This document shows positions 10,395 to 41,743 of a stretch of 57,592 nucleotides of DNA, one piece after another (positions within the stretch are counted from its first letter, which is position 1; the number at the start of each line of letters is the position of its first letter). Source of the DNA: Patescibacteria group bacterium. Lineage in GTDB: Bacteria > Patescibacteriota > Doudnabacteria > UBA920. The stretch covers positions 1 through 57,592 of the forward strand of contig JBBTRN010000002.1 of assembly GCA_038065175.1 (NCBI GenBank), given 5' to 3'. Made by a program: the position numbers and the translations under genes. The notes under the pieces are model-generated. The model saw only the letters and a program-made list of their open reading frames with translations, searched no databases and was not told where the DNA came from.

Positions 10395-10408
10395 CGCAAC
10401 CAACTGGT

Positions 10409-10436: not shown

Positions 10437-10470
10437 TCAACATTTTGTCATTCGATAGGAGGTGAAATAC

Positions 10471-10704
10471 ATGAAGGTGCCAGAACAAGCACGGTCTTGG
10501 GTACTTATTATGCTGTTGTTTGCGGCGATTGCTTTTCTAATAGCCGTGAATATTCAGCAGTACACATGGCGGCCTCATAACGAGGAGTATTGGTTCGAGC
10601 AATACTTCTGGCCGCGCCACGCGGCGTGGTGGGCCAAAACCGGCATGTGGGCCAGTGTTGGAATTATGGCAATCCTGTTCCATCGTTGGAAACGACCCGG
10701 TTGA
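10471..10704 (+). CDS. Hypothetical small two-TM, Trp-rich membrane protein (77 aa), high-GC cassette 2
   Basis: AGGAGG lies 8 nt upstream of the ATG at 10471. Two hydrophobic helices are present (WVLIMLLFAAIAFLIAV, MWASVGIMAILF). Confidence 0.5.
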   Translation: MKVPEQARSWVLIMLLFAAIAFLIAVNIQQYTWRPHNEEYWFEQYFWPRHAAWWAKTGMWASVGIMAILFHRWKRPG

Positions 10705-10710
10705 GCGTTA

Positions 10711-10747
10711 GGGCGGCGCGAATGCCAGCGCGCCGTCCATTTTTTTA
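10711..10747 (+). terminator. Rho-independent terminator after cassette 2
   Basis: gggcggcgcg-aatgcca-gcgcgccgtcc followed by tttttttt. Confidence 0.65.
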
Positions 10748-10750
10748 TTT

Positions 10751-10787
10751 CACCCCCTCCTAGCCTCCCCCCTCAAGGGGGAGGAAA
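10751..10787 (+). repeat. GGGAGG-hairpin repeat (solo copy) overlapping the capA stop
   Basis: caccccctcctagcctcccccctcaagggggaggaaa. It supplies the CapA C-terminal residues LPLEGGG. Confidence 0.8.
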
Positions 10788-23455: not shown

Positions 23456-23508
23456 AAAAAAAAGAAGGGACGATGGGCAGGCTGGTTGGCCGTTTCATCG
23501 TCCTCTTC
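23456..23508 (-). terminator. Rho-independent terminator of the high-GC minus-strand operon
   Basis: On the minus strand: gaagaggacgatg ... catcgtcccttc followed by T8. It marks the left edge of the GC-rich island. Confidence 0.65.
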
Positions 23509-23580
23509 AGGGTGATCTAGGTCGGGCGCGGGGTGGTCCCCGTCTAAAGCGCATTAGCTTTCGCATAATGCACCCCCTTC

Positions 23581-26168: not shown

Positions 26169-26289
26169 TTGTCCTCCTAGACATTTGGTAAAGAACTGTT
26201 GGTTAGAGAATTCTGCGTGTGGCGGTCTGCGCAAAATCCCCTTAAGCGAACTGCAAAAAAACTTGTGTAGCCACATTACTAATGTTTTT

Positions 26290-26326
26290 CACCCCCACCT
26301 AACCTCCCCCCTCAAGGGGGAGGAAA
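26290..26326 (+). repeat. GGGAGG-hairpin repeat (solo copy) in the 5' leader of the minus-strand operon
   Basis: cacccccacctaacctcccccctcaagggggaggaaa, located at the GC-rich/AT-rich boundary. Confidence 0.8.
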
Positions 26327-26394
26327 AAAACAGGAGATTAAAAACAACAGCAATGTAGCCGCAATTAATAAATAATATTTTATTTTAACCTCTG

Positions 26395-26424
26395 ATTATA
26401 ACACAAAATAGCTAAATTTGTCAA
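26395..26424 (-). promoter_or_regulatory. Consensus sigma70 promoter, minus strand (TTGACA-18-TGT-TATAAT)
   Basis: The reverse complement reads ttgaca aatttagctattttgtgt tataat with a TGn extended -10. It lies about 225 nt upstream of ATG 26168. Confidence 0.55.
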
Positions 26425-26504
26425 TAATTAGACCCTAAAACCCTTATTTATAAGGGAAAATTAATAATTTAGATTAAAAACAAGCCTGGATTAAGAGTTT
26501 ATTC

Positions 26505-26533
26505 TTGACATAATAGTTTATTTGTATTATAAT
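26505..26533 (+). promoter_or_regulatory. Consensus sigma70 promoter, plus strand (TTGACA-17-TATAAT)
   Basis: ttgaca at 26505-26510, a 17-nt spacer, tataat at 26528-26533. It lies about 335 nt upstream of ATG 26869. Confidence 0.55.
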
Positions 26534-26868
26534 GTTTAGTCATTATGCCGCAGTGTCGGCAGAGTGACACAGTTCTTTATAATTGTCCTTAAGGAGGATA
26601 TAAGCCCCAGTTAAATGAATCCAGACTTTGTTTGGGAATTTAACGGGGCAAGCGTTACTTATTTTACGCGGAGCATTCGCGGATTTAGATCGCAGACGCG
26701 GATTACGCGCTGAGCGGAAAAGAAATGTTAATTGCATGCTGAAAAAATTGGATACTGCAATTAGCCCCAAATTTATTTTTGGGATTAGTGGCAGTATCTA
26801 GTTTGATTTTTAGAACACGCCGCAAGGTGTGTCTCTATGGCAGTTAACGTTCAGGAAAAGGAAAGACA

Positions 26869-28497
26869 ATGTCTAACTACAAAAACCCCCTCGCACGTTT
26901 TTTTGGATTCGCGATTTGCGCGCTCGCGCTGATCGCGTCGTCCACAACCGCTTTTTCACAGACCCGCGATTACGACTTCGACAAGGACGGCAAGCCCGTT
27001 CAAGTCGGCGGCCCTGGGTTCACCCAGCAGCCGCAGGCGGCTCCGACCCCATTGCCGGCTCCCAAGCCGGACGAAGTGAAGCCGGGTTCGAGTTCCCCCA
27101 CCCCAAAGGCCGAGCCTGATAAGGGTGAAGCCAAAAAGGGAGGGGAGGAGAAAAAGTCCGAAGAGGCTACGACTCCATCTCCCGCGGCTCGCATCGGCGG
27201 CGCCATCCGTTCAGCCTTTCCGTGGATTTTGGGCGCTGTCGGTTTTATCGGTGTGGTAATCTTAGTGGTCGTGTTCCTGCGTTCGCGCAGGCAGGCGACT
27301 CCGCCCCCGCCGCGTCCGCACGCGCCTCCACCACCTCCCGCTCCCGGACCTCACGCTGCTCCGCGGCCCGTGGTTTCCCCGGCTCACCGTCCGCCTCCGG
27401 CCAGTGGGGTACCTGTTCGTCCGCCCGTTGCGGCGACTCCGCCCCCCTCTGGCCCAGCCGCACCCGCTCCGCCTGCAACGCCGGCTCCCGCGCCACCCGC
27501 AACACCTCCGGTCGTGGCTCCCATCGTCGCCCTGTTGTTCGCCGTGTTGTTCGCGGCGCAGGCGGCGTACTCGCAGGCGCAGTACACGGTGTTTCCGTCG
27601 GCCATCCCGGTCGGCGGCAGCATCAACGCCATCGTCACCGGGCCGAACGCCAACACCCTCACGGGTTGCGGCGTTGCCCTTCCGGACAGTGGCTGCTCGT
27701 TCTCACACGTGGTCTCCGCCACCCAGGTAATGGTTCGGCTCACTGCCGGACCCAACGCCATGGGCACGAACCCGCACCCGGTGCGCGGCACCCTTCGGTT
27801 GGTTTTCGGTGGCACAACCACCGTGAATTTGCCGAACGCAGTTGTGGTGGGCAAGTCGGAGCAAATTGGCACGGCGATGATCTCGCCACATGTCAATCCG
27901 GCACCTGCGCCAGCACCCCGTCCGACCTACATCGCCGGCGCTGACCGGACCGCACGCACTGCGGCCGAAGCGGCTATGAACGCCGCGAAAAACGCGCAGT
28001 CCGCGAATCGGTCGTTGGCTGATAAGCTGGAAGCAACAATGACGTTGCTCCAGAACGTGGACTCGCGACTGCAGGCTTTGGAAGGTCGTCCGCAGGTTGT
28101 GGGCGGGCTCCAGGACTCGCAAGTCCGGACTATCGTCAACGAAAGCGTTGATGGTCGGGTTGCCCTTTCACTCGCCCCGGTCCGCAAGGACCTGGACGAG
28201 CTGAAGGCTCGTGTGGACAAGGTTGAGCCGATTTTGACCGCGACGGCTGATGCTGTTGAAGCGGTCGGTGCGGCGGCGGATCATGGTGGCAGTTTTCTCG
28301 GTTTCGGCGGCGGACCTAAAAAATCCCTCCGTCAGGCCGCGACTGAAGCCAGGCTCCGCCTGGCGTGTGCCCGCGGAATCGTGACCAAGGGTTGCCCGGC
28401 TTCGCTGGGTACACCCGCGGCCACGGCCGCATCGGCACCGGTGGCCGCAAGCTCCGGAACCGCCCGCCTCTCGGGCGGCCGTGTTGACAAGAAGTAA
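26869..28497 (+). CDS. Proline-rich envelope protein with signal peptide, two further TM helices, an Ig-like region and a coiled coil (542 aa)
   Basis: Signal-like N-terminus FAICALALIASSTTAFSQ, TM helix WILGAVGFIGVVILVVVFL, a Pro-rich block of about 70 aa (PPPPRPHAPPPPPAPGP...), and a second signal-like helix IVALLFAVLFAAQAAYSQ. The C-terminal part has heptad-like helices. High GC. Confidence 0.55.
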   Translation: MSNYKNPLARFFGFAICALALIASSTTAFSQTRDYDFDKDGKPVQVGGPGFTQQPQAAPTPLPAPKPDEVKPGSSSPTPKAEPDKGEAKKGGEEKKSEEATTPSPAARIGGAIRSAFPWILGAVGFIGVVILVVVFLRSRRQATPPPPRPHAPPPPPAPGPHAAPRPVVSPAHRPPPASGVPVRPPVAATPPPSGPAAPAPPATPAPAPPATPPVVAPIVALLFAVLFAAQAAYSQAQYTVFPSAIPVGGSINAIVTGPNANTLTGCGVALPDSGCSFSHVVSATQVMVRLTAGPNAMGTNPHPVRGTLRLVFGGTTTVNLPNAVVVGKSEQIGTAMISPHVNPAPAPAPRPTYIAGADRTARTAAEAAMNAAKNAQSANRSLADKLEATMTLLQNVDSRLQALEGRPQVVGGLQDSQVRTIVNESVDGRVALSLAPVRKDLDELKARVDKVEPILTATADAVEAVGAAADHGGSFLGFGGGPKKSLRQAATEARLRLACARGIVTKGCPASLGTPAATAASAPVAASSGTARLSGGRVDKK

Positions 28498-28507
28498 CGC
28501 TTTTCCT

Positions 28508-28546
28508 TACCCCCTCCCTAACCCTCCCCCTTAACAGGGGAGGGAA
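28508..28546 (+). repeat. GGGAGG-hairpin repeat (solo, diverged copy) right after the 542-aa gene
   Basis: taccccctccctaaccctcccccttaacaggggagggaa. Confidence 0.7.
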
Positions 28547-29027
28547 TAGCAGGCGGTGACGGAACATAAACATTGGAAGAGGGGAATGGCACTGCTATTT
28601 CCCTCTCTCCTCTCTAAAAAATTAGGATTTGGAATTTAGGGTAAAAGGTATATACTTTATATCCTGAAACTAGAATCTTAAAAATACCTCCGGTTAAATG
28701 ATTTGCTTGGCAAATCAACCCGCCTTTGGCGGATTATTTAACGGGGTAAACAAGGAGGAATATAAACCAATTCCAGTTTTTGGAATTGGGAAATTTTAGA
28801 TTTGGCAGATTAGCTTCTCGACAGGCTCGAAGGTTATGCACGGATGAGCAAGTAAAGACATCTTAGAGATAAAAATAGATCCCGGATCCCCAGTAGTAGT
28901 TCTCGACAAGCTCGAACACTACGGGGCAAGCAAGTCCGGGATGACAGAAAGGTGTTTTTTCTTGCTCGTCCGGCATCCCTGAAGTTTAGGGAAATTCAAC
29001 CGGACGGCGAGAAAGGAGGGTAGCGAG

Positions 29028-29981
29028 ATGCCTTTGATCTTTGCAATTCTCCTGTTTTTGTCCGCCGGTTTGGGGGTCGCACAGACTTCCACCGGCAAAG
29101 TGTTTTTTGCAACGCCCGAGGCTTGCCTCGCGGCTCCGCTAGACAACTCCTCGATCGTTTATCAACCGAGCTTTAACAATTTGCTTGGGTGGTGGACGGA
29201 AAAGTGGGAGCTTGGAACTGCGCAAAAAGTCGAGGGTCATAACAAGACCTTCTGTGCAGAGGAGCAGACTGTGGAGGGCAAGCAAATTATCCGTTGGCCC
29301 AAAAACAATCCGTTCTTTACAGCCGGAAGCCGCAAGGCTGACGGCCGGTGCGGCAATGAGGTTTATAGGCTTTGGGAAGTTTCCGAGCCTGTGTTTCAAC
29401 CAGTAGTAGTAGTACCGCCCGTTGCAGTCGCTCCGGCTTCGCCCGCACCACCTTCGCATGTCTGTCCGGAGTGCGGCGATGTTACTTGGGCTGTGAACCA
29501 GCCTGGGGTGATATCGAAAGTCGAGAACGGAACACTTGTTCTCGGCTCGGTGGTTCTCCACAGCGACTTGCGCCTTAATTTGACGTTCTCGTTTACCGAG
29601 GGCGTAGAGGAAGGCCGCATTTTGGCAGGGGACACGGTTCTGGCCGGCGGAAATGCCGTGGACATTACTTCTGCGGATGGTCCGGAACCGGGGGTGTACG
29701 ATATTGTTGCGGAAGGCCGGGACTCGGACGGTCACATTGTCCGTTGCCGGGTTCGTATCACGTTTGTGGCTCCTGCGCTACCCGCTCCTGTCCTTATTAC
29801 CGTCGAAAAAAAGAAGGGGAGGAAATTCCCAATCCCGTGTATCCCACGGGAGAAAACGTGGTTCGGCATCGGCGTCCCCGTTCTTGAGTGTGCGGCCATC
29901 GTTGGCGGCGTATGGGCAATCTGGCCTGTCGCCGAAGCCTTCAAGCACGGCGCTGCTGTGCTGGTCGGACTTGTGCTCTAA
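29028..29981 (+). CDS. Secreted, C-terminally anchored protein with Ig-like region (317 aa)
   Basis: AGGAGG lies 8 nt upstream. Signal peptide IFAILLFLSAGLGVAQ, a Cys-containing N-domain, a Pro/Val linker, a beta-rich segment (GVYDIVAEGRDSDGHIVRCRVRITF) and a hydrophobic C-terminus. High GC. Confidence 0.55.
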   Translation: MPLIFAILLFLSAGLGVAQTSTGKVFFATPEACLAAPLDNSSIVYQPSFNNLLGWWTEKWELGTAQKVEGHNKTFCAEEQTVEGKQIIRWPKNNPFFTAGSRKADGRCGNEVYRLWEVSEPVFQPVVVVPPVAVAPASPAPPSHVCPECGDVTWAVNQPGVISKVENGTLVLGSVVLHSDLRLNLTFSFTEGVEEGRILAGDTVLAGGNAVDITSADGPEPGVYDIVAEGRDSDGHIVRCRVRITFVAPALPAPVLITVEKKKGRKFPIPCIPREKTWFGIGVPVLECAAIVGGVWAIWPVAEAFKHGAAVLVGLVL

Positions 29982-30046
29982 ACTGGGCAAAAACGGCAGC
30001 GTTCAACCAGGACGCCGCTACGGCAAATCTAAAATGTAGGAATCTT

Positions 30047-30087
30047 GGCCCGGGCGCGACTAATTATCGTTCCCGGGTCTTGTTTTT
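30047..30087 (+). terminator. Hairpin (ggcccggg...cccgggtc) plus T-run at the right edge of the island
   Basis: A 7/8-bp stem with an 18-nt loop followed by ttgttttt. Confidence 0.4.
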
Positions 30088-30142
30088 ATCAATAATCTTT
30101 TATCGCCTCTTCTTTTCATTTTGGTTTTTTTATGGTTTAATA

Positions 30143-30315
30143 TATATAGGGACTGTTGCGGAATGTCATTTTTGCCCAAAACGATCTGCTTTGGCAAAAT
30201 TCCTAAAAAAATTCTTCCGCTTACCTTTCAGGTAAACATCAAAATTTGTTTTAGAAATTTTACTCAAATCATATCATTTTGCATCAAAAAGCCCATTCGG
30301 CAACAGTCCCATATA
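30143..30315. other. 173-nt long-hairpin element, second copy of the family at 17794-17957
   Basis: The terminal arms tatatagggactgttgcggaatg / cattcggcaacagtcccatata are complementary. The apex at 30204-30252 matches 17851-17899. It ends 18 nt before ATG 30334. Confidence 0.6.
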
Positions 30316-30333
30316 AGATTTGTCCCTAATAAT

Positions 30334-32631
30334 ATGCCAGAAACACAAAATAGCAATCCAAGCGAATTAGGCTTAGAACACCAGCCGCCCGCCCCTCACC
30401 CAACCGAAAGCCCAGACAATCGAAAAGTTGTGCCAGTAGAGGAAGGGAGGCAAGGCTTAAAGTCTAAACAGCGTAAAAACATTCGGTTAACAGACATAAG
30501 AGCCACAGAAATGCCTGATTCCAAGGGTGAGTTTGATAAGGATAATAATCCATTGGGCAGGGTCCGTTACGAAGTCAGAATTGACGCGCCCGGTAAAGGT
30601 AAAGTTTACAGGCGAACCGTGAAATTTATTGTGCCAAGAGTTGACCAGAAAAATTTTTTAGATGCACGAAAAAAAGAGACTATTAATTTTCATAGCCAGG
30701 ATATAGTTGACCAATACCGCAGATATAAAAATGAACATAGGGGTCGGCTTGTGCCCTGGAATAAGGATCGCTGGCTAACTGAGAAAGAGTTTGAGGAAGG
30801 TTTAGAGGAGTCGGGTTATGACATTGGGATGAACCGGTGGCAAAGCACTCAAGCAGACAGCGTTGAGCAGGTAATTGCCAGGATGCTCAAGCAGAATAAT
30901 TTTGATTTATTGCCCAGCGGTATTAGTTTAGATAAGCCCCTTTTAGACAAAAAGCGGCAATTGCGATTTTATATTGACGGCAGGGAATTTAACGCACCGC
31001 TTGCGGAAGTTGAGACCCGCGTTAAAACGGTATTTGGCCTATTGCAGGCGAGCCAGGAGCAAAATTTAAATTTATACGAAAATCTAATCCGTTTTAGGCA
31101 AATGGATTTTAACAAAATTTTAAGATTACCAGACGGCAATGAAAAAAAATTAGCTTTACAGGTCTTGGGCGTATTTGCGGGCATTCCAATTAAGGTTCTG
31201 CAAAAAGCCAAACAACTGGTGAACAATGGCGAGGCTGAAGATTTATTTGAGGAATATGAGCGGGTTAAAATTAAAGAACGCCAATTGGCTTCTACGCATG
31301 GACGGCGGCCTAGGGCTCGGAGGTTTTTAAGCCAAAAAGAACAGAATATAATAGACGTATTTGAAACTTTGGGCTTGAAGCTAAGGGGTAAAGACGGTTT
31401 TAGCTTTGCTACGGCAGGGGTGAACCAAGCTTTTTTAAAAAGATTAAGGCGTGAACCATGGGAGCATTTGGAAGAAAAAACACAGAGCCTTTTAGACGAA
31501 GCCCGCGAGAGCGTAAAAACATTAAATTTAAAGAAATTGGGATTCAAAGGCCTCCAAAAAGAGTTGGAAAGCGCCAATTTAAGCCAGCAGGAACAGAATG
31601 TAATGTATATTGCCGCGATTTTAGAAACTGGCCATAGCGCCAGATATATATTGGATGATTTTTGTAAAAAAGATTTACTGGAGCATTTTCCGGTTTTAGA
31701 AGTTAACCGTACCGCGGCCAGAATTGCTTTGGATTTATATAAAACAACGGTGGAAAAAAAATCTTTGCCGGAATTTCAGGACAAGCCGATTTTTGAGGCA
31801 AATGCCAGCCAAGCCTTTAAGGATCCGAATGACAAACGGCCGCAAAGCTTGGGTTTTGTAGCAAGAAAACAAGTTCAGGTTTTAACCGGCAGGCAATTCG
31901 TGGAAGTGTCCATTGCAAGACCTGCGGTCAAAGCAGGCCAAAACGCGGACAGAGACAGGGTTTTCCGTTTACCTAAAGACAGTTCGGTTGTTGGTTCCTT
32001 AGGAGCGGCTAAAACTTTGCAAAACCAAGTGGCGGATATTTTTTGGCGGCGGGCAAGGGAGGAAGGCCAGCGTTTTAGTTTTGTGCCGCACATTGAGCTG
32101 TTGAAGGGCAAGGCAAAGCAGAATCCTAAATTCCGCCTAACTTTAGGCACGAGTTCGGGAGAGGTTGATTATAAGACTTTCTATGAATCTTTAAGTTTTG
32201 AAAATAAAGTTAAGGTTGAAGTGTTGAAAGCAACCTACTTAGATAACAAAAAAAACCGGGGTGAGTGGTCAAAAGACACTAAAGAATGGCAAAAGCAGGC
32301 CGTGTATATGTTTCAGAATATTCTTTCTCACAGCGGGTTGCCCAGTTTAACCGAACAGCTTATAGTTTCGGAACTAAAAAAACACGGAGGAAAGCCAAGG
32401 GGTACGGTGGCCATATTGGACAAAGTCGGCAAAGTGATAAAAACGGGCGTTGAAAAAACAGCCAAAAAAGTTAGCCCAGATGAACCTATTATTCCAACTG
32501 GCATAATTAGCGCCAAAGATGTGGGATTGATTCTTGAAGAAAAGGCAAAACTCACCCGGAAAGCTCCAAAGGCTAAAGTAGTAAAAGCAAAACCTGATAT
32601 CCCAGCCAAAAAACGGGTTAAAAAGAAATGA
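30334..32631 (+). CDS. Large basic hypothetical protein (765 aa)
   Basis: Start set at MPETQNS (ATG 30334), because the ORF-track extension back to 30121 lies inside the hairpin element. No TM helix or signal peptide. Lys-rich C-terminal tail. Confidence 0.55.
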   Translation: MPETQNSNPSELGLEHQPPAPHPTESPDNRKVVPVEEGRQGLKSKQRKNIRLTDIRATEMPDSKGEFDKDNNPLGRVRYEVRIDAPGKGKVYRRTVKFIVPRVDQKNFLDARKKETINFHSQDIVDQYRRYKNEHRGRLVPWNKDRWLTEKEFEEGLEESGYDIGMNRWQSTQADSVEQVIARMLKQNNFDLLPSGISLDKPLLDKKRQLRFYIDGREFNAPLAEVETRVKTVFGLLQASQEQNLNLYENLIRFRQMDFNKILRLPDGNEKKLALQVLGVFAGIPIKVLQKAKQLVNNGEAEDLFEEYERVKIKERQLASTHGRRPRARRFLSQKEQNIIDVFETLGLKLRGKDGFSFATAGVNQAFLKRLRREPWEHLEEKTQSLLDEARESVKTLNLKKLGFKGLQKELESANLSQQEQNVMYIAAILETGHSARYILDDFCKKDLLEHFPVLEVNRTAARIALDLYKTTVEKKSLPEFQDKPIFEANASQAFKDPNDKRPQSLGFVARKQVQVLTGRQFVEVSIARPAVKAGQNADRDRVFRLPKDSSVVGSLGAAKTLQNQVADIFWRRAREEGQRFSFVPHIELLKGKAKQNPKFRLTLGTSSGEVDYKTFYESLSFENKVKVEVLKATYLDNKKNRGEWSKDTKEWQKQAVYMFQNILSHSGLPSLTEQLIVSELKKHGGKPRGTVAILDKVGKVIKTGVEKTAKKVSPDEPIIPTGIISAKDVGLILEEKAKLTRKAPKAKVVKAKPDIPAKKRVKKK

Positions 32632-32692
32632 GAAATTGACATTAATTGAAAATCATGGCATTTTTAAGGCAAATATTAAATAAAAAAATTTT

Positions 32693-33025
32693 ATGACTCA
32701 AAAAAATCAAAACACTACCAGCGCTCTGTCAGATCCTAATATAAAAGTTTTTGTGGAAAATTTGGTGGCGGAAAAAAACTTTACAGATGTGGAAGAAGAA
32801 GTTATGGCGCAAATAACAAAAGACTTGACTGATCGTGTCGAAGAAATTATTAATGCCGCAATTTTGGCGGCTATTCCTGCTGACAAACTGGAAGATTTTG
32901 ATAAACTTTTGCACACAGGGACTAGGCAGGAAATTGCGGCTTTTTGCGAAACCAATGTACCCAATTTGCAAGGGGTGGTGACAGAAGAATTAAGGGCGTT
33001 TAGGGAAACCTATTTGGGCGTTTAA
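32693..33025 (+). CDS. Small acidic helical protein (110 aa)
   Basis: An ORF of host composition between the two large genes. No domain recognised. Confidence 0.5.
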   Translation: MTQKNQNTTSALSDPNIKVFVENLVAEKNFTDVEEEVMAQITKDLTDRVEEIINAAILAAIPADKLEDFDKLLHTGTRQEIAAFCETNVPNLQGVVTEELRAFRETYLGV

Positions 33026-33062
33026 TTTTCCGTTTTATTTTTTATCGCTCATCGTTTATTAT

Positions 33063-36000
33063 ATGACAGAAAGGCCGGGCTTTAATTCCGAAGACTCCAT
33101 GAGGGAGTTTCAGGATCAGGACAAGCTTACAATCGGCTTAGCCGATATTACTTCGGCCGTGGAAGAGCGTTCTAAAGATGTTGCTTTAGACAAAGTTACC
33201 GAGAACGCCGAACAGCCAAAGGGTTTTTGGGCGCGGGCAAAAGGTTTAGTCAAGAATGTCTGGAAGCGCAGCGAGATGAACTTGACTCTGGAGCGCTACC
33301 GGGCGGAAAAGAAAATCCTTAAAGAAGGTTTGTACTCGCATTTAGAAGAAGAAGCTGGCAGTGACCAGGCAAAAAAGGCGGAAAGACAACAGGAAGCCAA
33401 AGAAGCTCAAGAACGCACAGTTAAGGCCACAGTGGACAGGTTCACCGTAAAGAGCGAATTTGAGGATCAATTTATACACAAAGAAGCAGGTGAGCATAGG
33501 GAAGAGCTTAACGATGCAAATTTACGCGGGCAAATTATTGGTTTGGTAAAAGCCTACGCCAGAGGCGAAGAAAGAGGCGGTATTACTGAAGAGCAATTTA
33601 ATATTGAAGTTAACAAGCTTTTTAATCCGGAAAGCCAGTTTGTCCGTGGACTAAAAAACACCAATCCCCAGGCCGTAGAAAAAGGCAAAATGTTCGCTCA
33701 TAATCTTTTGGATATTGCTAAAAAAGCCAAACAGATTATAACTAGGCAAGTTGAGCAAAATGTGGATTTACTGGCGGCCTTGGAAGGTTTGGATGAGCGG
33801 TTCCGAATTATGGTGGGTAAGGCCAAAGCCGGGGTCAGAACCGAGGCCCAGTATAACGCGGTTGATAGAATAACCAATTTTATTGTTAAACACACTGGCG
33901 GAGTTTTTACCGAACAGACCGTGGCCGTGGGGGTGGCCGCGGTTTACGGCGCTGCCACAAAGTTTGCTGGTGCGGCGTTTAGAAAAGCCTCTGGGATTTT
34001 AGGCGGCGCAGGAGCTTTGGCCGGCATGCAGGAGAGCAGGAGGCTCGAGAGGGAAAGAGCCCAGCACGCGCGTGAAATGGCCCAGGGGCGTAAGCTTAAG
34101 AGTCCGGATAAAGCTAAGCGCCGTAAAGAATTGGAAGAGTCCAGGATCCAATTTAAAAAATTTGGCGACATAAAGAACGATTTGGAAATTTCGGTCTTAA
34201 ACCGCGGCAGCGCAGAATTTTCTGAAGCGGAATATAATGAAGGTTTAAAAGTTTTGGCAGACTTGGAAGCCCGGGTTAAAGTCTCCAACCGCGGCATTTT
34301 AAATTCCGAAGTCTCCAAATGGAGGCTCATACAAAGAAATAAACGTTACAGGATAGATTTGATTGGCTATAGCGACGAGACAAATGTGGCTAAAGAACAG
34401 CAGGTTTTGGACATAATGCGCGCTAAGGCTAAAATTGAATTGGCCAAGTGGGCAACGGCGCACGGCAAGAATTTGGATCGTGATTTAGACCAGGCGGTGG
34501 AAGCCCAAATTACGAATCTCAAGCAGGGCGACCAAGGCATTTTAAAAAAGAATGAAATGTTTATTAGCCTTAAGCGCAAAAGGGTGTTTAAGGCCATTGC
34601 TAAAGGCATGCTAATTGGCGGTGCAATTGGCACAATTATGCAGGAGGCGCAAGCGTTTTGGAATGAAGGTCAATATGGCGTGGCTGAACATTTGGTGGAC
34701 AAGGTAAGGGGCATAAAGCATTTTGTCAAAAAGGGCGAAACTTCGACTATGCTCGAGGGTGCTTGGCAGAACGCGAGGGATTATTTTGACCCATCGGTCC
34801 ACGCGGCAAGTCCTCTCCACGATGAAATTTTAGGCTCCCGGACTTTTAGGATGCACGACGGCATAAAGTGGGCAGAGGACGCTTCGACTACAGGCAACAA
34901 CAATGATTTTTATTTAACGGACGCGAGCGGCAACCGTATAAGCGAAAATTTGGAATTGAACCCGGATAGGAGTTTGACTCCCGGGGCTAAACAGTGGCTT
35001 TTAGACCATGGGTACAATGTAGCTGATTTAGCCTCCAGCGCGGCTAAAGGCATGCACGGGCTGGATTTGGCGGAAACCCAAAAGCTGTTTCCTGACTTAG
35101 CGCAAAACGCAAGGGTAGACTGGCACGACAAACCGGGTGAGTTTTGGAGCGAGATTCATAAACAGTGGCTGGAATTTGAAGGCAAACAGCAAATGGGCTA
35201 TTTGGTCACGCGAGGAGATAAGGTTTTTTTGGATTGCAGTAAAGTGCTTGATAATTTTCTAAAAGAGATAGAACAGCGGGTAAATTCACCTGATTTCGGG
35301 CAGGTGGAAGGATATTTTAACGCTAACGGCACACCGTTTGTTGACCCAAAAATGATGCATTTAAAGGAGCGGATTATTGAGGCAATCAATAATGGCGACA
35401 TTCACCAGAAATTCCAGGCAGTTGTCATTCCAACGGAAGGCGCCAACGACGCCGGAATAAGCGACCTAATTGAAGGCGCTGACGCCCAGGGTATGATTGA
35501 GCTAAACGGGAAATATGACTGGTCAAAGATATTTATTGATCCGGCTACCGGCAAGATCGATCCGGCAAAACTCCATGACGGCAAACTTCCGTTCAGCTTT
35601 TTGGAAATGCGTTTTGACGGCCACGTAATGAATACAGTGAAGGGTTTGCCGGAAGTTGCCGGTATGCCAATTACCGAAATTTTACCACCCAGCGGAAATT
35701 TACCACCTACCACACTCTGGCCCTTCGGTGCCGCCTGGCCGAGAAGGGGAATTGAGGAAACGGAAAGGCCGCCAGGTATTTATCCTTACTATGGTGGGTT
35801 TGAAATCACGCCTGAAGAGAGAGCAAGAATGAGGCAGGATATGTCGCCACGGTTATTAGAGAATCCTGATGCCCGTTTGGATCCTTCGGTAGAAATTCCT
35901 TGGTACTTTTCTCAACAAGAAAATCGTTATTCGGGATACAGAAAAGAATTGGACAGGCTGAATGCCCAAATAAACCATCCTATGGGCTTAAATACAGAGG

Positions 36001-38060
36001 CAGTAGTAGCTTTAGCCGTGGCCGGCCATCAAGAACATGAAAATATTTTTCGCACCCTTCAGGTATATGGTTTGCAAAAAGACAAAAATGGCAATAGTGT
36101 TTGGAACGGTGATGCCAGCAAATATGAAATTATTCTTTATGTTAACTGGCCTTCAGGTAGTAATCCCGAAAAAACTTTTCAAGAAATTGAACGGTTTAGG
36201 CAGCAATATCCAAATGTCCCGCTAAGAGTTTCCGGCGAAGAGATAAATAACGGGCAAACTGAAGTTGGCTGGTATAAGAAGAAAGCTTTTGATTTGGGAT
36301 TACTTAGGCACATGCAAAGAGGAAACGGAAAGGATATTATAATAATTGCTAACGATGCGGATATGCGCTACGCTCATCCGCAATATTTAGAACTCGCTAG
36401 TGGTTATATGGATACAACAGAAGCCCAGAAACTTGACGCATTGCTTGGCAGGCAAGATTTAGACCCAGAAGTATACGAGAAGAACCCAACATTCCATTCA
36501 GTTATGCGTTTTTGGCAGAATATGGATAGCGTTTTGCGCGCTAAACACCATATGATGTATACCCAAGGCAGGAATACCTTATTAAGAGGTTCAAGTTATG
36601 CGGCGATTGGTGGTAATAGAACTAAGGATTTTTGGGCAGATGTGGAGTTTGGGAAATTATTCCAAGCCGCGAGGAATGGCAAGCATACGCTTGACTATTC
36701 AAATAAGGCTTGGGTTATGGTAGACCCAAGAAGAGAAATAGACAAGTTTAAGAGGGGCGAGTTCATTGCTTGGACTTGGTCAGATTTTAATACCAGGCAA
36801 AACATACGCGGCGGAGGCAAGGCAGACCATCAGGCTCCAGAAAATTTGGATGTGGAAAAATTGGCCTTAGCAGCAGAACAAGACCCGCAGGTTGTCCAGT
36901 TCAGAGAGCGTTTAGAGGAAGAAATCCAGGCGGTCGCTGATTCTTATTTATCAAACCTATCTTATTATCCTTCCGATATAGACGATGGGGATGACGATGT
37001 TAATTCTCTATTTAAAGGTAAATTAGATTATCGGAAGGCTGAGAAAGTCGTAAGAAAAGCGGCTGAGTATTTGGGCATAGAGATTGACATTCAGCCTGAT
37101 ACTTACGCTGACAATAAGGCAAAATTAAAAATAAACATTAAAGATTCACAAAAGCTCCGTGATCGTTTGTTGCAATATAGAGATGAGGTTAGGAAACAAG
37201 TTAAATTAAAAACTCAGCCTTTTGAATTAAGACCAACTTTCGAGCCGAAAAAACTTTTAACCGAAGCCCTTAAATCTGGATTTAATCAGAATCCTTTTAA
37301 ATTTATTAAAAATTTGGATACGGTAGATTTAAAGAAGTCAAAAATATCCAGGCAAGATTTGGTTCAGGCTTTGTTTGAGGTAAATGGACTTGGGGATCAG
37401 TATGAGCAGGCAAAATTGGACGCGCCTGAGACTAGGGGTGCCAGTGCCGGCCAAAAGACTTTGATCCAGCTGTTAAAACTAATGGCGCAAGGCAATCCGG
37501 GATTAAAACAGCAATGGCAGCAAAACTATCCGCGCGGGTACACAGCCTGGGCGTTTGATGCCATGTCGCAAGACGTACACCGCGACATTGTCTCTCAAGG
37601 CGGTTTGACGGACGCTAAAGTGGATGCTTACGCAAAGGAGTACAACCTTTCCGGAGTGGAAATCTTAACCCAGCTGTTTAAGGGCAAACCTTCTTGGCAG
37701 AAAAAATTTGAAGACGCTTTTGCTGCGGCCGGCCGGGTTGAAGCCAGACGTGAAGAAACATTAAGGCAAATATTAGCAGAAATGCAGCCGTCTGCGCAAA
37801 ATAAAATTCCCTCGACGGTTACTCGGATAGTTCCTGGGACAGTTCCTGGTCGAATCGGCGGACAAACAGCGCCGGACATAACCAGAGCCAGGCCGGCGAC
37901 AAGAAGAGAAATACTTCCCTCATCTCCCGACTCTCCCGAAGACATTCAAGTTGACGCGGCAGAATTATTAAGACTACTTCAGCAACAGGGTAAGCCGGGC
38001 AACAAAAAGACTGCCGGAGTTAGGAAGGTTGTTAAGAAAACAGTCGTAAAGAAAAAGTAG
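33063..38060 (+). CDS. Giant membrane-associated protein (1665 aa) with an embedded GT-A (family-2-like, DxD) glycosyltransferase core
   Basis: Gly/Ala-rich hydrophobic segments at about 33.92-34.03 kb and 34.60-34.65 kb. The GT-A-like block at about 36.00-36.70 kb has VALAVAGHQEHENIFRTL, YEIILYVNWPSGSNPEKT, IIIIANDADMRY (DxD) and QGRNTLLRGSSYAAIGG. The tail is Lys-rich. Confidence 0.55.
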   Translation: MTERPGFNSEDSMREFQDQDKLTIGLADITSAVEERSKDVALDKVTENAEQPKGFWARAKGLVKNVWKRSEMNLTLERYRAEKKILKEGLYSHLEEEAGSDQAKKAERQQEAKEAQERTVKATVDRFTVKSEFEDQFIHKEAGEHREELNDANLRGQIIGLVKAYARGEERGGITEEQFNIEVNKLFNPESQFVRGLKNTNPQAVEKGKMFAHNLLDIAKKAKQIITRQVEQNVDLLAALEGLDERFRIMVGKAKAGVRTEAQYNAVDRITNFIVKHTGGVFTEQTVAVGVAAVYGAATKFAGAAFRKASGILGGAGALAGMQESRRLERERAQHAREMAQGRKLKSPDKAKRRKELEESRIQFKKFGDIKNDLEISVLNRGSAEFSEAEYNEGLKVLADLEARVKVSNRGILNSEVSKWRLIQRNKRYRIDLIGYSDETNVAKEQQVLDIMRAKAKIELAKWATAHGKNLDRDLDQAVEAQITNLKQGDQGILKKNEMFISLKRKRVFKAIAKGMLIGGAIGTIMQEAQAFWNEGQYGVAEHLVDKVRGIKHFVKKGETSTMLEGAWQNARDYFDPSVHAASPLHDEILGSRTFRMHDGIKWAEDASTTGNNNDFYLTDASGNRISENLELNPDRSLTPGAKQWLLDHGYNVADLASSAAKGMHGLDLAETQKLFPDLAQNARVDWHDKPGEFWSEIHKQWLEFEGKQQMGYLVTRGDKVFLDCSKVLDNFLKEIEQRVNSPDFGQVEGYFNANGTPFVDPKMMHLKERIIEAINNGDIHQKFQAVVIPTEGANDAGISDLIEGADAQGMIELNGKYDWSKIFIDPATGKIDPAKLHDGKLPFSFLEMRFDGHVMNTVKGLPEVAGMPITEILPPSGNLPPTTLWPFGAAWPRRGIEETERPPGIYPYYGGFEITPEERARMRQDMSPRLLENPDARLDPSVEIPWYFSQQENRYSGYRKELDRLNAQINHPMGLNTEAVVALAVAGHQEHENIFRTLQVYGLQKDKNGNSVWNGDASKYEIILYVNWPSGSNPEKTFQEIERFRQQYPNVPLRVSGEEINNGQTEVGWYKKKAFDLGLLRHMQRGNGKDIIIIANDADMRYAHPQYLELASGYMDTTEAQKLDALLGRQDLDPEVYEKNPTFHSVMRFWQNMDSVLRAKHHMMYTQGRNTLLRGSSYAAIGGNRTKDFWADVEFGKLFQAARNGKHTLDYSNKAWVMVDPRREIDKFKRGEFIAWTWSDFNTRQNIRGGGKADHQAPENLDVEKLALAAEQDPQVVQFRERLEEEIQAVADSYLSNLSYYPSDIDDGDDDVNSLFKGKLDYRKAEKVVRKAAEYLGIEIDIQPDTYADNKAKLKINIKDSQKLRDRLLQYRDEVRKQVKLKTQPFELRPTFEPKKLLTEALKSGFNQNPFKFIKNLDTVDLKKSKISRQDLVQALFEVNGLGDQYEQAKLDAPETRGASAGQKTLIQLLKLMAQGNPGLKQQWQQNYPRGYTAWAFDAMSQDVHRDIVSQGGLTDAKVDAYAKEYNLSGVEILTQLFKGKPSWQKKFEDAFAAAGRVEARREETLRQILAEMQPSAQNKIPSTVTRIVPGTVPGRIGGQTAPDITRARPATRREILPSSPDSPEDIQVDAAELLRLLQQQGKPGNKKTAGVRKVVKKTVVKKK

Positions 38061-38442
38061 TTTTAGACTTTTGTGGCTCTCCTCCGCATTTAGTCATCTA
38101 AGAATGTTACTCGAACGCCGCAAAAAGTTAATAAAATTAGGCCTAATATATCGTTGCATTTTTCGGGATTTTTTTAACCCTAACAACGGCTACAAAATTC
38201 ATTATTCGCTTTGAAATCGGCCTTGGATTGATTTATTAAGAATTTAAGCATCAGTGCTTGGCAAAAGGGGTATCTAGGGTAACACCGCTCATGGCTCAAC
38301 CGAAGATGAGGTAGTAACAAATTACGTGGCTCAATTCGCTCCTCTTGTGTGAAGGTTATTTTTGTAGTATAGTATAAAATATAAAGGGAATTTGGTCGAT
38401 TTCCTTTAAATAATTTAATAAAAATAATTAAATTAAAAATAT

Positions 38443-39201
38443 ATGGCATTTTTTAGAAAAAGCCCGGAAGTCGGGCCACAAGTGGAAGCCTCTACCGAGG
38501 CAAAACCGGCTGGGAAGAGGGAGAGGCCTGATTTTAAGGCTCTCGCCACTCAAAGGAATGAGGTAGTTGCCAAAAAGACATCGGGTGTTGGTGAAAGAAT
38601 AAAAGGTTTTTTTGGCAGGGTTAGGGAAGGCGGAAAAGTAGCCAAGGATTTTGTTTTGACTATTGACGCCCGCGCGGCTTATCGCGCCGGCCAGGCGAAA
38701 GACATTGCTGTTGGAGCCTATGAAGCTACGAGGGACGCGGCGGTCAGCGGCGCGCGGGCAGTGAGGTCAGAAGTAGTTCAAGACGCTAAAGCTGTGTATG
38801 GCGCTGGTGTAAGAGGTAAGGATTACGCAGCGGGGAAGGGTAAAGAGGGAGTAGAGTGGACAAAAGCGCGTGGGAGCGAAGCAGTCCAGCTTGGCAGGGA
38901 TGGGGTGGAAGCAGTGCATGACGGAATGGAGAGAGCCAGAGATTACAGCTTGGCAAGGTTTAGTGAAGCTGGGGCCGCCATTGCCAGCCGGAGACAGGAA
39001 TATTTAGACAGTAAAGAAACGAGAGCTTGGAACGCGGAACAGACAAAAGTCAACGGTGCGCAGGATATGATTAGGGCTTTACAAGCTCGAATTGCAACAA
39101 GCCAGGAGGCTCAAACTAGAATTGAACGGGGTTTTCAGGATAGGCTAAAAGAGAGAGATGTTTCGTATCCTAACCAAGAAGTAGCGACAGCGGCTGCCTA
39201 A
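38443..39201 (+). CDS. Ala/Gly/Arg-rich repetitive helical protein (252 aa)
   Basis: Low-complexity amphipathic repeats (A..A.RDAAVSGARAV...). A possible TTGTGT-17-TATAGT promoter lies at 38345-38373. Confidence 0.45.
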   Translation: MAFFRKSPEVGPQVEASTEAKPAGKRERPDFKALATQRNEVVAKKTSGVGERIKGFFGRVREGGKVAKDFVLTIDARAAYRAGQAKDIAVGAYEATRDAAVSGARAVRSEVVQDAKAVYGAGVRGKDYAAGKGKEGVEWTKARGSEAVQLGRDGVEAVHDGMERARDYSLARFSEAGAAIASRRQEYLDSKETRAWNAEQTKVNGAQDMIRALQARIATSQEAQTRIERGFQDRLKERDVSYPNQEVATAAA

Positions 39202-39218
39202 AATTAATATAAAAATAT

Positions 39219-39560
39219 ATGGCTGACTTAAAACAACAACTTGAAGAATTAATTAATTCTTTGCCGGTTGAAGACGGCGTCAAGCAAACTTTGCTTACTA
39301 AACTTAACGTCGAAGGCGCTAGCGAAGATATGGTTATTGAAGTGAGGGTGGTTTTGGCAGAAGCCCAGGTCAATTTAAATAAAAAATATAAGCCGCAGCT
39401 TGACCAGCTTAAAGCTTTGGAGCAGGAAGAAAAAGCCGCTTATGACACCTATAGCCAAGAAATGGACGAATTGGAAGAGGACTTAGATAACTTGGCGAAA
39501 GCCCTGACTAAAGCTGAAGAAGAGCAGCAGTTAGAAGAAGCGCGGAAAAAGATAGTATAG
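39219..39560 (+). CDS. Acidic coiled-coil protein (113 aa)
   Basis: Lies 17 nt after the previous stop. Glu/Leu/Lys heptad-like sequence. Confidence 0.45.
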   Translation: MADLKQQLEELINSLPVEDGVKQTLLTKLNVEGASEDMVIEVRVVLAEAQVNLNKKYKPQLDQLKALEQEEKAAYDTYSQEMDELEEDLDNLAKALTKAEEEQQLEEARKKIV

Positions 39561-39580: not shown

Positions 39581-39606
39581 CAAAGCCCCGGGAATTCCCG
39601 GGGCTT
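39581..39606 (+). terminator. Rho-independent terminator (aaagccccgggaattcccggggcttt)
   Basis: A perfect palindromic GC-rich stem with flanking A and T residues. Confidence 0.65.
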
Positions 39607-39624
39607 TGGTTCGGGGTTTTTAGG

Positions 39625-39838
39625 TTCATACGCAATATTACTGGACTTAAGCGTATAACTTCGCTACCCGAAACAGATGGAAAGCTCTATCTCTCACGCC
39701 TCTGACCACAGAACGGAAACTCTTTAATTTAGCGTTAAACGGGTCATAATGATAATCGTTAGTTGTGATTATCATTATCACATCTTTACTTGACTTAATG
39801 TTCTAGCTGGCTTGTTACTCCAGTAGTATTGCGTATGA
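39625..39838. repeat. 214-nt segment bounded by 20-nt inverted repeats (tcatacgcaatattactgga / tccagtagtattgcgtatga)
   Basis: 19/20 complementary. An internal hairpin ataatgataatc...gattatcattat lies at 39746-39778. Confidence 0.6.
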
Positions 39839-39864
39839 CTCGGTTTTTATGGTACAGTTTTACT

Positions 39865-40182
39865 ATGAGTAAGGATTTGGAAAAAATTAAAGAGATTGCG
39901 GTGCCTATTTTAAAACAGAACGGCGTCGAATTTGCCGGCGTTTTTGGCAGTGTGGCAAGGGGCGAGAGCAGGGTCGGGAGCGACGTTGATATTTTGGTAA
40001 AATTTGCGAGCCGCCCGACCTTTGCAGGCTACTTGCGTTTGGACGATGCTTTGCGGGCAAGTTTGGGGCGTGAGATTGATTTGGTCACTGTCGGAGGAGT
40101 TAATAAATTTTTGCTCCCGGAGATTGAAAAAGATTTAATGGTATTATATGGACAAAGACCAAATTTATCTTTCCGAAATTAA
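39865..40182 (+). CDS. mntA: MNT-type nucleotidyltransferase antitoxin
   Basis: GVFGSVARGESRVGSDVDILV (GS-x10-DxD Pol-beta NTase motif). Start set at MSKDLEKIKE (ATG 39865). Confidence 0.75.
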   Translation: MSKDLEKIKEIAVPILKQNGVEFAGVFGSVARGESRVGSDVDILVKFASRPTFAGYLRLDDALRASLGREIDLVTVGGVNKFLLPEIEKDLMVLYGQRPNLSFRN

Positions 40183-40465
40183 AGAATTTTGCCAGGAAGT
40201 AATTGATTTTACCGCACAGGTTGCTTATGAGGATTTTGTTTCTGACAGGAAATTATACCTTTGTGTCATAAAGCTTATAGAAAATATTGGCGAAGCATCC
40301 AAAAGGCTTTCTATGGAAGCCAAGTCCCAATATCCGAAGGTTGAGTGGGACAAGGCTGCCAAGATGCGCGACCGGCTTGTACATCATTATATGGATGTTG
40401 ATTTAGCTATAGTTTTCGATGTGGCAATCAATGAAATTCCTAAACTTTTTAGCAATTTATCCTAA
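40148..40465 (+). CDS. hepT: HEPN (DUF86) toxin
   Basis: RDRLVHHY matches the R-x4-H HEPN motif. It overlaps the mntA 3' end by 35 nt. Confidence 0.75.
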   Translation: MDKDQIYLSEIKEFCQEVIDFTAQVAYEDFVSDRKLYLCVIKLIENIGEASKRLSMEAKSQYPKVEWDKAAKMRDRLVHHYMDVDLAIVFDVAINEIPKLFSNLS

Positions 40466-40510: not shown

Positions 40511-41743
40511 ATGAAATTAAAAAATCATATGGCAGAAGTTAAACCAAAAATCCAATCATTTGCCAGAATTAAGGTTCTTGGCATTGGGGGATCCGGTACC
40601 TCGGCTGTTAACCGTATGACTGAACTTGGGATTAAAGGCGTGGAATTCATAGCGATAAATACCGATGCCCAGGCGCTCCATAACAACCACGCGGACATTA
40701 AGGTCCATATTGGCAAGGGGATTACCAAAGGCTTAGGTAGCGGCATGAACCCCGAACTCGGGCGCCAAGCGGCCGAGGAGTCCATAGAGGAACTGGAAGA
40801 CGTGGTAGATAACGCGGATATGGTCTTTTTAACCTGCGGCCTTGGCGGGGGCACCGGAACCGGAGCCGCGCCGATTGTGGCAGAGCTTGCTAAAAATAAA
40901 GGAATTTTGACTGTAGCTTTGGTAACCAAGCCCTTTACTTTTGAAGGCAGTAAGAGAAAAGAAGTGGCCGAAGCCGGCTACGATAATTTAAAAGACAAAG
41001 TAGACGCGATTATTGCGGTTCATAATGACCGGATTTTGCAAATCATCGACAAAAAAACTTCCCTAATAGACGCCTTTAAAACTGTTGATGAAGTTTTAAG
41101 GCAGGGCATAGCCGGTATAAGCGACCTGATAACTACCCACGGCCTGGTCAACGCGGATTTCGCGGATATTAAATCCATAATGCAGGACGCGGGCACAGCC
41201 ATGATGGGCATAGGCAGGGCAAGCGGGGAGAATAGGGCACAGGAAGCGGCAAAGCTTGCCATTAACAGCCCGCTTTTGGATATGTCCTTAGACGGCGCTA
41301 AGGGCGTATTATTTAACATCACCGGCGGCAGGGATTTGGGTATGTTTGAAATTGATGAGGCGGCCAAAGTCATTACCAAAAATATTGACCCAGACGCTAA
41401 AGTTAAATTCGGCGCCGTGGTTGACGATTCCATGGGCGATGAAATTAGGATTACAGTAATTGCCACGGGCTTTGAAGGATCTAACCGAGCTTCCGGCGGC
41501 ATTATGCCGGGCTTTGAAGAGCCAAAAAAAAGCATTTTAAACCCTTCATTCTTTTCGTCCCCAGCATCAGCTCCGCAAAATCAGCAAGCTCCTCACTCTG
41601 AAGCCAGGAAGCCCTTATTTAACCCCCAGCCGGCCCAGCCAAAAACTTCTTCCCAGGCATTTCAGGCTCCCGCCCAGCAAAAGCAGGAGCAAACTGACGA
41701 TGAATTAGAGATTCCCGCCTTCATCCGTAAAAAGATGAAGTAG
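40511..41743 (+). CDS. ftsZ: Cell division protein FtsZ
   Basis: GIGGSGTSAVNRM, the GGGTGTGAAPIVAE tubulin signature, and the C-terminal DDELEIPAFIRKK peptide. Confidence 0.9.
   Translation: MKLKNHMAEVKPKIQSFARIKVLGIGGSGTSAVNRMTELGIKGVEFIAINTDAQALHNNHADIKVHIGKGITKGLGSGMNPELGRQAAEESIEELEDVVDNADMVFLTCGLGGGTGTGAAPIVAELAKNKGILTVALVTKPFTFEGSKRKEVAEAGYDNLKDKVDAIIAVHNDRILQIIDKKTSLIDAFKTVDEVLRQGIAGISDLITTHGLVNADFADIKSIMQDAGTAMMGIGRASGENRAQEAAKLAINSPLLDMSLDGAKGVLFNITGGRDLGMFEIDEAAKVITKNIDPDAKVKFGAVVDDSMGDEIRITVIATGFEGSNRASGGIMPGFEEPKKSILNPSFFSSPASAPQNQQAPHSEARKPLFNPQPAQPKTSSQAFQAPAQQKQEQTDDELEIPAFIRKKMK

Follow-up and report, generated by a model that had tools for sequence, protein, structure and literature searches.

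A phylum-wide family of giant modular proteins with a GT2-like glycosyltransferase head and a DUF5663 partner in Patescibacteria

The stretch of DNA analysed here (the window) comprises 57,592 nucleotides of contig JBBTRN010000002.1 from a Patescibacteria bacterium of the Doudnabacteria (assembly GCA_038065175.1). Between positions 30334 and 38060 it carries three genes on the forward strand, which also bears the parts of the giant protein, the two genes downstream of it and the MNT/HepT pair described below. They encode a basic protein of 765 amino acids (30334–32631, counted from its ATG; pI 9.75), an acidic DUF5663 protein of 110 amino acids (32693–33025; pI 4.41) and, as an intact open reading frame (ORF), a giant protein of 1665 amino acids (33063–38060; pI 8.09), which consists of an N-terminal module (N-module), a middle module, a GT-A glycosyltransferase head and a C-terminal region. 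The giant protein and its DUF5663 partner belong to a phylum-wide family, previously undescribed within the searchable literature, with a two-gene modular architecture around a GT2 enzyme. We describe the pairing of the genes, the modular architecture, the distribution and chromosomal context of the family, and the fold and catalytic-residue conservation of the head.

A conserved two-gene unit

Re-measurement confirmed the three ORFs and their layout as they had been described from the sequence alone. The genes are separated by 61 nt (765-aa to 110-aa gene) and 37 nt (110-aa to giant gene), and no Shine-Dalgarno-like purine run is visible 5' of any of the three starts, where the DNA is AT-rich and purine-poor. 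The GC content of the three-gene stretch (0.42–0.47) equals that of the rest of the window, with the adjacent island at 24–30 kb reaching 0.55–0.57, and both large proteins end in Lys-rich C-terminal tails.

The giant ORF is not a chance reading frame, since a word-index search retrieved 30 homologues and an exhaustive profile search with the N-terminal block retrieved 1,305 clusters at 50% identity (E ≤ 1e-3), including 898 at E ≤ 1e-30. The 30 homologues all come from metagenome-assembled genomes of Patescibacteria and are all unnamed or labelled 'hypothetical'. Family members have a median length of 1,377 aa, and BLAST among the homologues delineated two conserved blocks, at residues 20–650 and 860–1250. 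Two scans of one genome per species yielded 12 and 42 loci, each in a separate assembly; these scans were limited by their search patterns, which bound the count of one copy per assembly. The records are labelled Doudna-, Moran-, Sacchari-, Shapiro-, Uhr-, Komeili- and Parcubacteria and Minisyncoccia, a few bins probably being mislabelled. The whole giant protein gave no match in Pfam, NCBIfam, PHROGs or PADLOC, nor in a sequence search of the PDB. The proposal that the family lacks an assigned function was upheld: the named members are all 'hypothetical protein', and no mention of the giant family, of DUF5663 or of PF18908 was found in the searchable literature.

The 110-aa protein matches Pfam DUF5663 (PF18908) over profile positions 1–82 of 84 (E = 5.9e-7; 30.4 bits, gathering cut-off 23.7). 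Of 18 distinct loci, 17 have a DUF5663 gene directly 5' of the giant gene and the last lacks upstream DNA; 34 of 35 additional loci show this arrangement as well. The gaps between the two genes range from −19 to +31 nt in the 32 of these 34 loci that were scored automatically; in the remaining two the mechanically called ORFs overlap. An all-against-all comparison of neighbours in the 18 loci revealed no other recurrent gene family near the giant gene. The conserved unit across Patescibacteria is thus made up of two genes, DUF5663 and giant. A profile search of the PDB with the DUF5663 alignment gave no significant match. In three loci a second, longer DUF5663-domain gene lies 3' of the giant gene (L004, 13125–13565; L009, 4363–4671; L018, 5110–5595); in L004 and L018 the giant gene thus has a DUF5663 gene on either side, and L009 has no upstream DNA.

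The preliminary description had presented all three genes as one cassette. An operon of three genes forming a single undescribed system linked to the neighbouring island would agree with their shared strand and short gaps. It would also agree with the presence, beside the giant gene of the Doudnabacteria locus L001, of a 772-aa protein that is 41% identical to the 765-aa protein (E 8e-163). The census did not support a three-gene cassette, as DUF5663 and the giant gene alone recur. The order in L001 is DUF5663, giant, 772-aa protein, so that the position of the 765-aa gene is not fixed. No homologue of the 765-aa protein was found in the other loci of the set of 18 or in other GTDB species representatives, and the island has no counterpart elsewhere. 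We conclude that the 765-aa protein is a lineage-restricted neighbour rather than a member of the conserved module, and consider a three-gene system very unlikely.

The word-index search, run with the single sequence and with a two-sequence profile, returned the 765-aa protein alone. This was a false negative, the L001 homologue being found by local BLAST, and the protein is accordingly rare but not an orphan. It has no match in Pfam, NCBIfam, PHROGs or PADLOC, nor in the PDB when searched with the profile of the 765-aa alignment. Its frame is open from a TTG at 30121, and the public gene call starts at the ATG at 30163 (822 aa). The ATG at 30334 is the more plausible start, because the translation of 30121–30333 is an AT-rich, low-complexity peptide without a counterpart in the Doudnabacteria homologue.

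The GT-A head

The glycosyltransferase head occupies residues ~940–1240 of the giant protein (35880–36782). The five motifs from which a GT-A core of family-2 type had been proposed were located at residues 982–999, 1021–1038, 1069–1081, 1092–1103 and 1168–1184, corresponding to nucleotides 36006–36614. An AlphaFold2 model of residues 880–1280, built with a 17-sequence alignment, reached a pLDDT of 78.8 and a pTM of 0.81. In a Foldseek search of the PDB, this model gave 58 matches at E ≤ 1e-3, the best being the GT2 enzyme PcManGT (6yv7, 1.4e-8). The best 50 of the 58 are without exception glycosyltransferases of the GT-A or a related kind, headed by GT2 enzymes; besides PcManGT, the leading matches are hyaluronan synthases, chitin synthase Chs1, chondroitin polymerase K4CP, TarP, RmlT and BcsA. 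A GT-A fold was therefore predicted for the 36.0–36.7 kb region, as the preliminary description had anticipated. At the level of sequence, a profile of the 17 sequences gave a marginal GT2 match in the PDB, again 6yv7 (E = 0.2), and homologous head modules matched the Pfam models PF00535 (5 of 17, best 1e-5), PF13641 (3 of 17, best 9.6e-7) and PF13632 (3 of 17).

The residues expected of a GT2 active site are strongly conserved. The DxD motif D1098-A-D1100 (36354–36362) is the presumed site of metal and nucleotide-sugar binding. D1193 (36639–36641) stands at the position of the Asp in the GT2 'ED' motif, is invariant in the alignment A1 and is the presumed catalytic base; the residue before it is Ala in the window protein and Glu in most relatives. 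Across 112 family modules, E991 is kept in 104, N1028 in 107, D1098 in 106, D1100 in 105, D1125 in 105, D1193 in 105, R1204 in 109 and R1224 in 105, and the presumed active-site residues, D1077 and N1171 included, are kept in 93–97%. The GT core proposed earlier is thus supported by the fold matches, by the Pfam GT2 matches of relatives and by residue conservation. This strong conservation of catalytic residues argues for a functional head, which, judged from the model and the alignment, is a very divergent, probably active, inverting GT2-type domain.

Modules, topology and chromosomal setting

The N-module (33063–35012; residues 1–650, conserved over ~610 aa) defines the family, being present in all 167 family proteins examined and the sole universal part. 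It is mostly helical, with a small beta domain at its end (residues ~585–632). In the AlphaFold model (pLDDT 74) a 41-residue helix holds the hydrophobic segment H3 and is followed by the small beta domain; the pLDDT is low at residues 279–314, the region of the hydrophobic segments H1 and H2. No fold relatives of the N-module were found in the PDB or BFVD at E ≤ 1e-3, and a sequence-profile search of the PDB gave no match. Resemblances to tape-measure, T7-ejectosome and BAR-domain proteins were rejected as long-helix noise (TM-score about 0.1). The middle module (35043–35720; residues 661–886) is followed by a Pro-rich linker. It is a diverged copy of a family module that is also found in members without a GT head and that in most members contains 'WYDNDT...NELKLWWGG...ILATH'; a profile search of the PDB with it gave no significant match. 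More than 1200 residues of the giant protein had been called unassignable. Most of these belong to conserved family modules of unknown fold.

The heads carried behind the N-module differ between members. Among the 167 proteins, the head is GT2-like in 110, GT2 plus GT9 in one, GT9 in nine (PF01075, best 8e-15) and DHH-like in 13; another 21 have a head not matched to a known type and 13 are truncated (short). The DHH-like module has the invariant pattern H-x3-D-x-D ... D ... DHH ... D, and two of nine members match PF01368 at 2e-4; by its sequence it looks like a very divergent DHH-family phosphoesterase, and a profile search of the PDB gave no significant match. Examples are L003 (12266–13699) and P0020–P0023, P0026, P0027, P0135, P0090 and others. 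Since GT9 replaces GT2 in some lineages, the data suggest that glycosyl transfer is the commonest task of the N-module platform. Co-inheritance of N-module and GT head is weakly positive and not decisive: the pairwise identities of the two modules correlate with a Pearson coefficient of 0.32, and for 12 of 112 proteins the nearest neighbour is the same on both modules.

Further domains are added in some members. A C-terminal Ser/Thr kinase occurs in six of 30 members scanned, and calpain-like, DnaJ and HopA1 domains in single members. In L006, a free-standing 337-aa Hanks-type kinase without a signal peptide (10081–11094) adjoins the giant gene and shares 38–41% identity along its entire length with the fused kinase tails of P0005, P0036 and P0113; this gene-fusion link ties Ser/Thr phosphorylation to the giant family. 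In L021 (2266–8108), the giant protein ends after the middle module (1062 aa) and the next gene encodes an 875-aa HAD-hydrolase-domain protein in place of a GT head. The C-terminal region of the window protein (36813–38057; residues 1251–1665) is of unknown fold and carries the Lys-rich tail. Residues 1251–1390 are common to about 10 family members and residues 1397–1660 only to P0002, P0076 and P0004. Lys/Arg-rich tails are present in 19% of the family, among them the window protein and P0002, its closest full-length relative.

The giant protein had been labelled a membrane protein without a signal peptide. Its N-terminus is hydrophilic, in agreement with the latter, and Gly/Ala-rich hydrophobic segments are present as described: H1 (residues 286–306) and H2 (309–322) at 33918–34028, and H3 (508–526), followed by a nearly invariant Q527-E528, at 34584–34646, all kept in position across homologues. 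Kyte-Doolittle averages over 19 residues are 1.0–1.5 in the window protein and 1.2–2.1 in relatives. On a position-independent Hessa-type scale, 150 of the 167 family members have no 19-residue window at or below +2.5. On the same scale, control transmembrane helices from Patescibacteria proteins mostly score between −4.5 and +2, and MscL TM1, a true Gly/Ala-rich helix, scores +4.5. The hydrophobic segments therefore stand, but they are marginal as transmembrane helices and the membrane-protein label is not secure. The flanks of H1 and H2 are all net positive, a charge pattern that fits a cytoplasmic in-plane or re-entrant hairpin. The flanks of H3 have, as family means, 6.2 Lys and Arg before the segment, 0.9 after it and 3.1 Asp and Glu after it.

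This charge asymmetry would also suit a surface-exposed protein, in which H3 acts as a signal anchor and residues 540–1665 lie outside, acting on the cell's own wall or on the surface of a partner. The beta-rich domain that follows directly after H3 and is repeated in some members is compatible with such a topology, and the window gene adjoins the surface-protein island. However, every identifiable head or add-on (GT2, GT9, DHH-like, Pkinase, DnaJ) requires cytoplasmic cofactors. GT-A and GT9 enzymes, kinases, DHH proteins and DnaJ depend on nucleotide sugars, on ATP or on partners in the cytoplasm, none of which is available outside the cell. In addition, H3 is weakly hydrophobic, and other genomes show no link between the island and the module. 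We consider surface exposure highly improbable and prefer a cytoplasmic orientation, because the cofactor and gene-fusion arguments are weighed above the charge signal of H3.

The locus is part of the core chromosome and not a mobile element. The order in the window is topA, dprA, der, hisS, HIT, yqeY, ftsA (22016–23275), the GC-rich island, the cassette, MNT/HepT, ftsZ (40511–41743) and ribonucleotide reductase, and the Doudnabacteria locus L001 has the matching order hisS ... ftsA ... DUF5663-giant ... ftsZ. In other lineages, the pair adjoins infB, ftsH, recG or tRNA synthetase genes, and no copies of the giant family were found in phage, plasmid and IMG/VR collections. In both the window and L001 the giant gene lies in the ftsA-ftsZ interval, which raises the possibility of a division or envelope scaffold, in which the N-module would be the functional part (e.g. 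a membrane-bound helical scaffold near the divisome) and the heads would be accessory. In a third relative, L021, the pair lies upstream of ftsZ and nrdR (partial synteny), and in L004 ftsA lies within 10 kb of the giant gene. That the N-module is the sole part shared by all members, and that Ser/Thr kinases are fused or adjacent in several of them, would fit this proposal; in other monoderm bacteria such kinases control cell division and the synthesis of the wall. On the other hand, the link to ftsA and ftsZ is absent in L003, L006 and L007, the fold search of the PDB revealed no similarity to a known divisome scaffold, and the strong conservation of GT catalytic residues argues for a working head. 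A scaffold function is for these reasons quite improbable.

Other features of the neighbourhood are less widely shared. The GC-rich island (~23500–30000, between ftsA and the cassette; GC 0.55–0.57 against 0.42–0.45 elsewhere) contains four ORFs, none with a Pfam match, of which those at 26869–28497 and 29028–29981 are Pro/Ala-rich with signal-peptide-like or transmembrane-grade segments. Related loci have no counterpart, which suggests that the island is a lineage-specific, possibly acquired surface-protein insertion. The link between the cassette and this island, on which the preliminary description had built, was lost on comparison, as other loci lack the island. Downstream of the giant gene, two genes of the same strand (38443–39560) encode a 252-aa protein and a 113-aa acidic coiled-coil protein, and are possibly co-transcribed. 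Weak homologues of the 113-aa protein (39219–39560) occur in L001 (18481–18780, E 3e-6) and L021 (922–1263, E 5e-4), the two loci closest in synteny, and the protein is a lineage-level companion of the ftsA-ftsZ interval. A T4SS_pilin gene lies within this interval in L001.

Two GC-rich hairpins with T-runs are present, one after the last island gene (30047–30090; stem GCCCGGG/CCCGGGT, 17-nt loop) and one after the 113-aa gene (39596–39616), the latter being the only one of the two caught by the terminator scan. They may bracket a five-gene transcription unit (30334–39560). Counts of promoters and terminators in the 29.8–39.8 kb region were not above those of shuffled sequence. Immediately 5' of ftsZ in the window, a gene for an MNT nucleotidyltransferase (39829–40182; PF18765/PF01909) overlaps one for a HepT RNase (40148–40465; PF01934), together forming a toxin-antitoxin pair. 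In the Moranbacteria locus L003, an MNT/HepT-type pair also lies directly 5' of the DUF5663 gene.

Proposed function and comparison with known systems

We favour, with about as much belief as doubt, the reading that the giant protein and its DUF5663 partner form a membrane-proximal, cytoplasm-facing glycosyltransferase complex that acts on a membrane-proximal acceptor. For this complex we infer the contact between DUF5663 and the N-module, the membrane association, the cytoplasmic orientation, the donor and the acceptor. The DUF5663 protein would be made together with the N-module and bind it, and the N-module, through its hydrophobic segments, would keep the enzyme on the cytoplasmic side of the cell membrane. 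The head would bind a nucleotide sugar and a divalent metal via D1098 and D1100. With D1193 as the base, the sugar would be passed, with inversion, to the acceptor, which could be a protein, a lipid carrier or a glycoconjugate of the envelope.

Several observations weigh against this reading. The window head itself (residues 880–1280) reached no model in Pfam or NCBIfam. The first nucleotide-contacting Asp of canonical GT2 enzymes ('DD', at the end of strand 2) is replaced by N1028 (V-N-W-P), and Asn stands at this position in 107 of the 112 family modules. The best 19-residue windows of the window protein have Hessa-type sums of +5.4 or more, a borderline value for a transmembrane helix, and the flanks of H3 carry an N-in/C-out signature that would place the head on the outer side of the membrane. 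In the neighbour comparison of the 18 loci, genes of sugar-nucleotide or acceptor pathways were not linked to the module. The GT9-type members are not mutual nearest neighbours on the N-module, which suggests that heads have been swapped repeatedly. Finally, the exchange of heads on a constant N-module with a small upstream partner gene is also compatible with effector systems.

A delivered effector is the main alternative. In that case the N-module would be an export and translocation module with moderately hydrophobic, glycine-zipper-like segments, DUF5663 a chaperone masking these segments, and the exchangeable head (GT, phosphoesterase or kinase) would act inside a partner or host cell, perhaps via Patescibacteria's type IV secretion system (T4SS). 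A constant N-terminal part with swappable C-terminal enzymes, a small acidic partner gene consistently placed directly 5', the lack of a signal peptide and the intermediate hydrophobicity all fit delivery; in type III and IV systems, effectors with transmembrane segments typically show lowered hydrophobicity. The N-in/C-out charge asymmetry of H3, in spite of heads that need cytoplasmic cofactors, points the same way, as do the Lys-rich C-terminal tails of the window protein and P0002, the T4SS_pilin gene in the L001 ftsA-ftsZ interval and the one member that matches the HopA1 effector family. Moreover, the T4SS of Patescibacteria is widespread and its substrates are not known (bioRxiv 10.1101/2025.01.22.634366), which also speaks for this reading.

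Against delivery, no recurrent immunity-like gene was found downstream in the 18 loci, where the neighbours are housekeeping or unrelated genes. There is a single copy per assembly in the pattern-limited scans (12 + 42 genomes), the neighbourhoods are core-genome and no mobile-element copies were found. About 75% of long members keep the GT head, its catalytic residues being conserved, the fold matches are housekeeping GT2 enzymes with no glycosylating-toxin structure among the 50 listed, the Lys/Arg-rich tails are confined to 19% of the family, and the kinase also occurs as a free, signal-less neighbouring gene. On balance we regard delivery as doubtful. Its boldest form is unlikely, namely that the pair is a phylum-wide export platform of Patescibacteria, in which a DUF5663-chaperoned N-module carries GTs, a DHH-like phosphoesterase and Ser/Thr kinases into the host bacterium and reprograms it. 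If true, the family would provide the first candidate cargo for a widespread and essential T4SS without known substrates.

Patescibacteria, which account for a large part of the diversity of bacteria, have very small genomes and a life attached to other microbes, and to our knowledge very few of their lineage-specific proteins have an assigned role. The family defined here consists of phylum-wide proteins of 1,300–1,700 aa with an obligate DUF5663 partner, an N-module without a detectable fold relative in the PDB or BFVD, and exchanged heads. The gene sits in the core chromosome; three related genomes carry it within or beside the ftsA-ftsZ cluster, the window and L001 between both genes. The retention of so large a gene in genomes of this small size points to an important function. 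Should the family build or modify the envelope, it marks an unknown route of glycosylation in Patescibacteria; if it is exported, it bears on what epibionts deliver to their hosts. D1098, D1100 and D1193, and the pair of DUF5663 and N-module, offer concrete targets for further research.

Among known systems, the head comes closest to the inverting GT2 glycosyltransferases (PF00535 clan), such as PcManGT (6YV7), TarP (6H4F), K4CP (2Z86) and the catalytic domains of hyaluronan, chitin and cellulose synthases. It shares with them the GT-A fold, the DxD motif, the Asp at the 'ED' base position and the preceding G-x-N ... GG block, and its relatives reach the Pfam GT2 models. In contrast to these enzymes, the window module lies below Pfam detection, the first Asp is Asn family-wide, and the head at residues ~940–1240 follows a region of roughly 900 aa of unknown fold and is paired with DUF5663. 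The giant protein is not a channel-forming synthase, because no transmembrane helices follow the GT domain.

A likeness to glycosylating toxins and effectors had also been suggested. With TcdA/TcdB (GT44), PaTox and Legionella Lgt/SetA the giant protein shares its very large size, the combination of a GT-A domain with a hydrophobic region and the lack of a classical signal peptide. The likeness did not survive closer comparison. The fold matches are of the GT2 type, the GT44 model PF12919 was matched by only one of 17 relatives (E = 0.24), and the Pfam scan detected no cysteine-protease or repeat domains in the giant protein. The domain order is reversed, with the GT towards the C-terminus behind the hydrophobic region, and, unlike the toxins, the giant gene belongs to the core chromosome and to a phylum-wide family. 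We conclude that the whole giant protein is not a large glycosylating toxin, since it has the wrong type of GT, a reversed domain order and none of the accessory domains.

Type VI effectors of the Eag/prePAAR type, type III and IV effectors with moderately hydrophobic segments, and LXG toxins with their small helical partner proteins provide a further comparison. With these chaperone-dependent effectors the family shares a small 5' partner gene, Gly-rich segments of intermediate hydrophobicity, and a constant N-terminal part joined to a variable C-terminal enzyme. The last of these is also a feature of polymorphic toxins, but the varying downstream immunity gene of such toxins was not found in the 18 loci. 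The heads are GTs, phosphoesterases or kinases rather than nucleases or NADases, and no PAAR, Rhs, LXG, DUF1795 or WXG100 domains were detected in Pfam, NCBIfam and PADLOC scans. The likeness to chaperone-dependent transmembrane-segment effectors is one of outline only. As for DUF5663 (PF18908), to which the 110-aa protein belongs above the gathering cut-off, Pfam gives no function and the strict pairing with the giant family was found in no searchable paper; this pairing is a first function-related observation for the domain.

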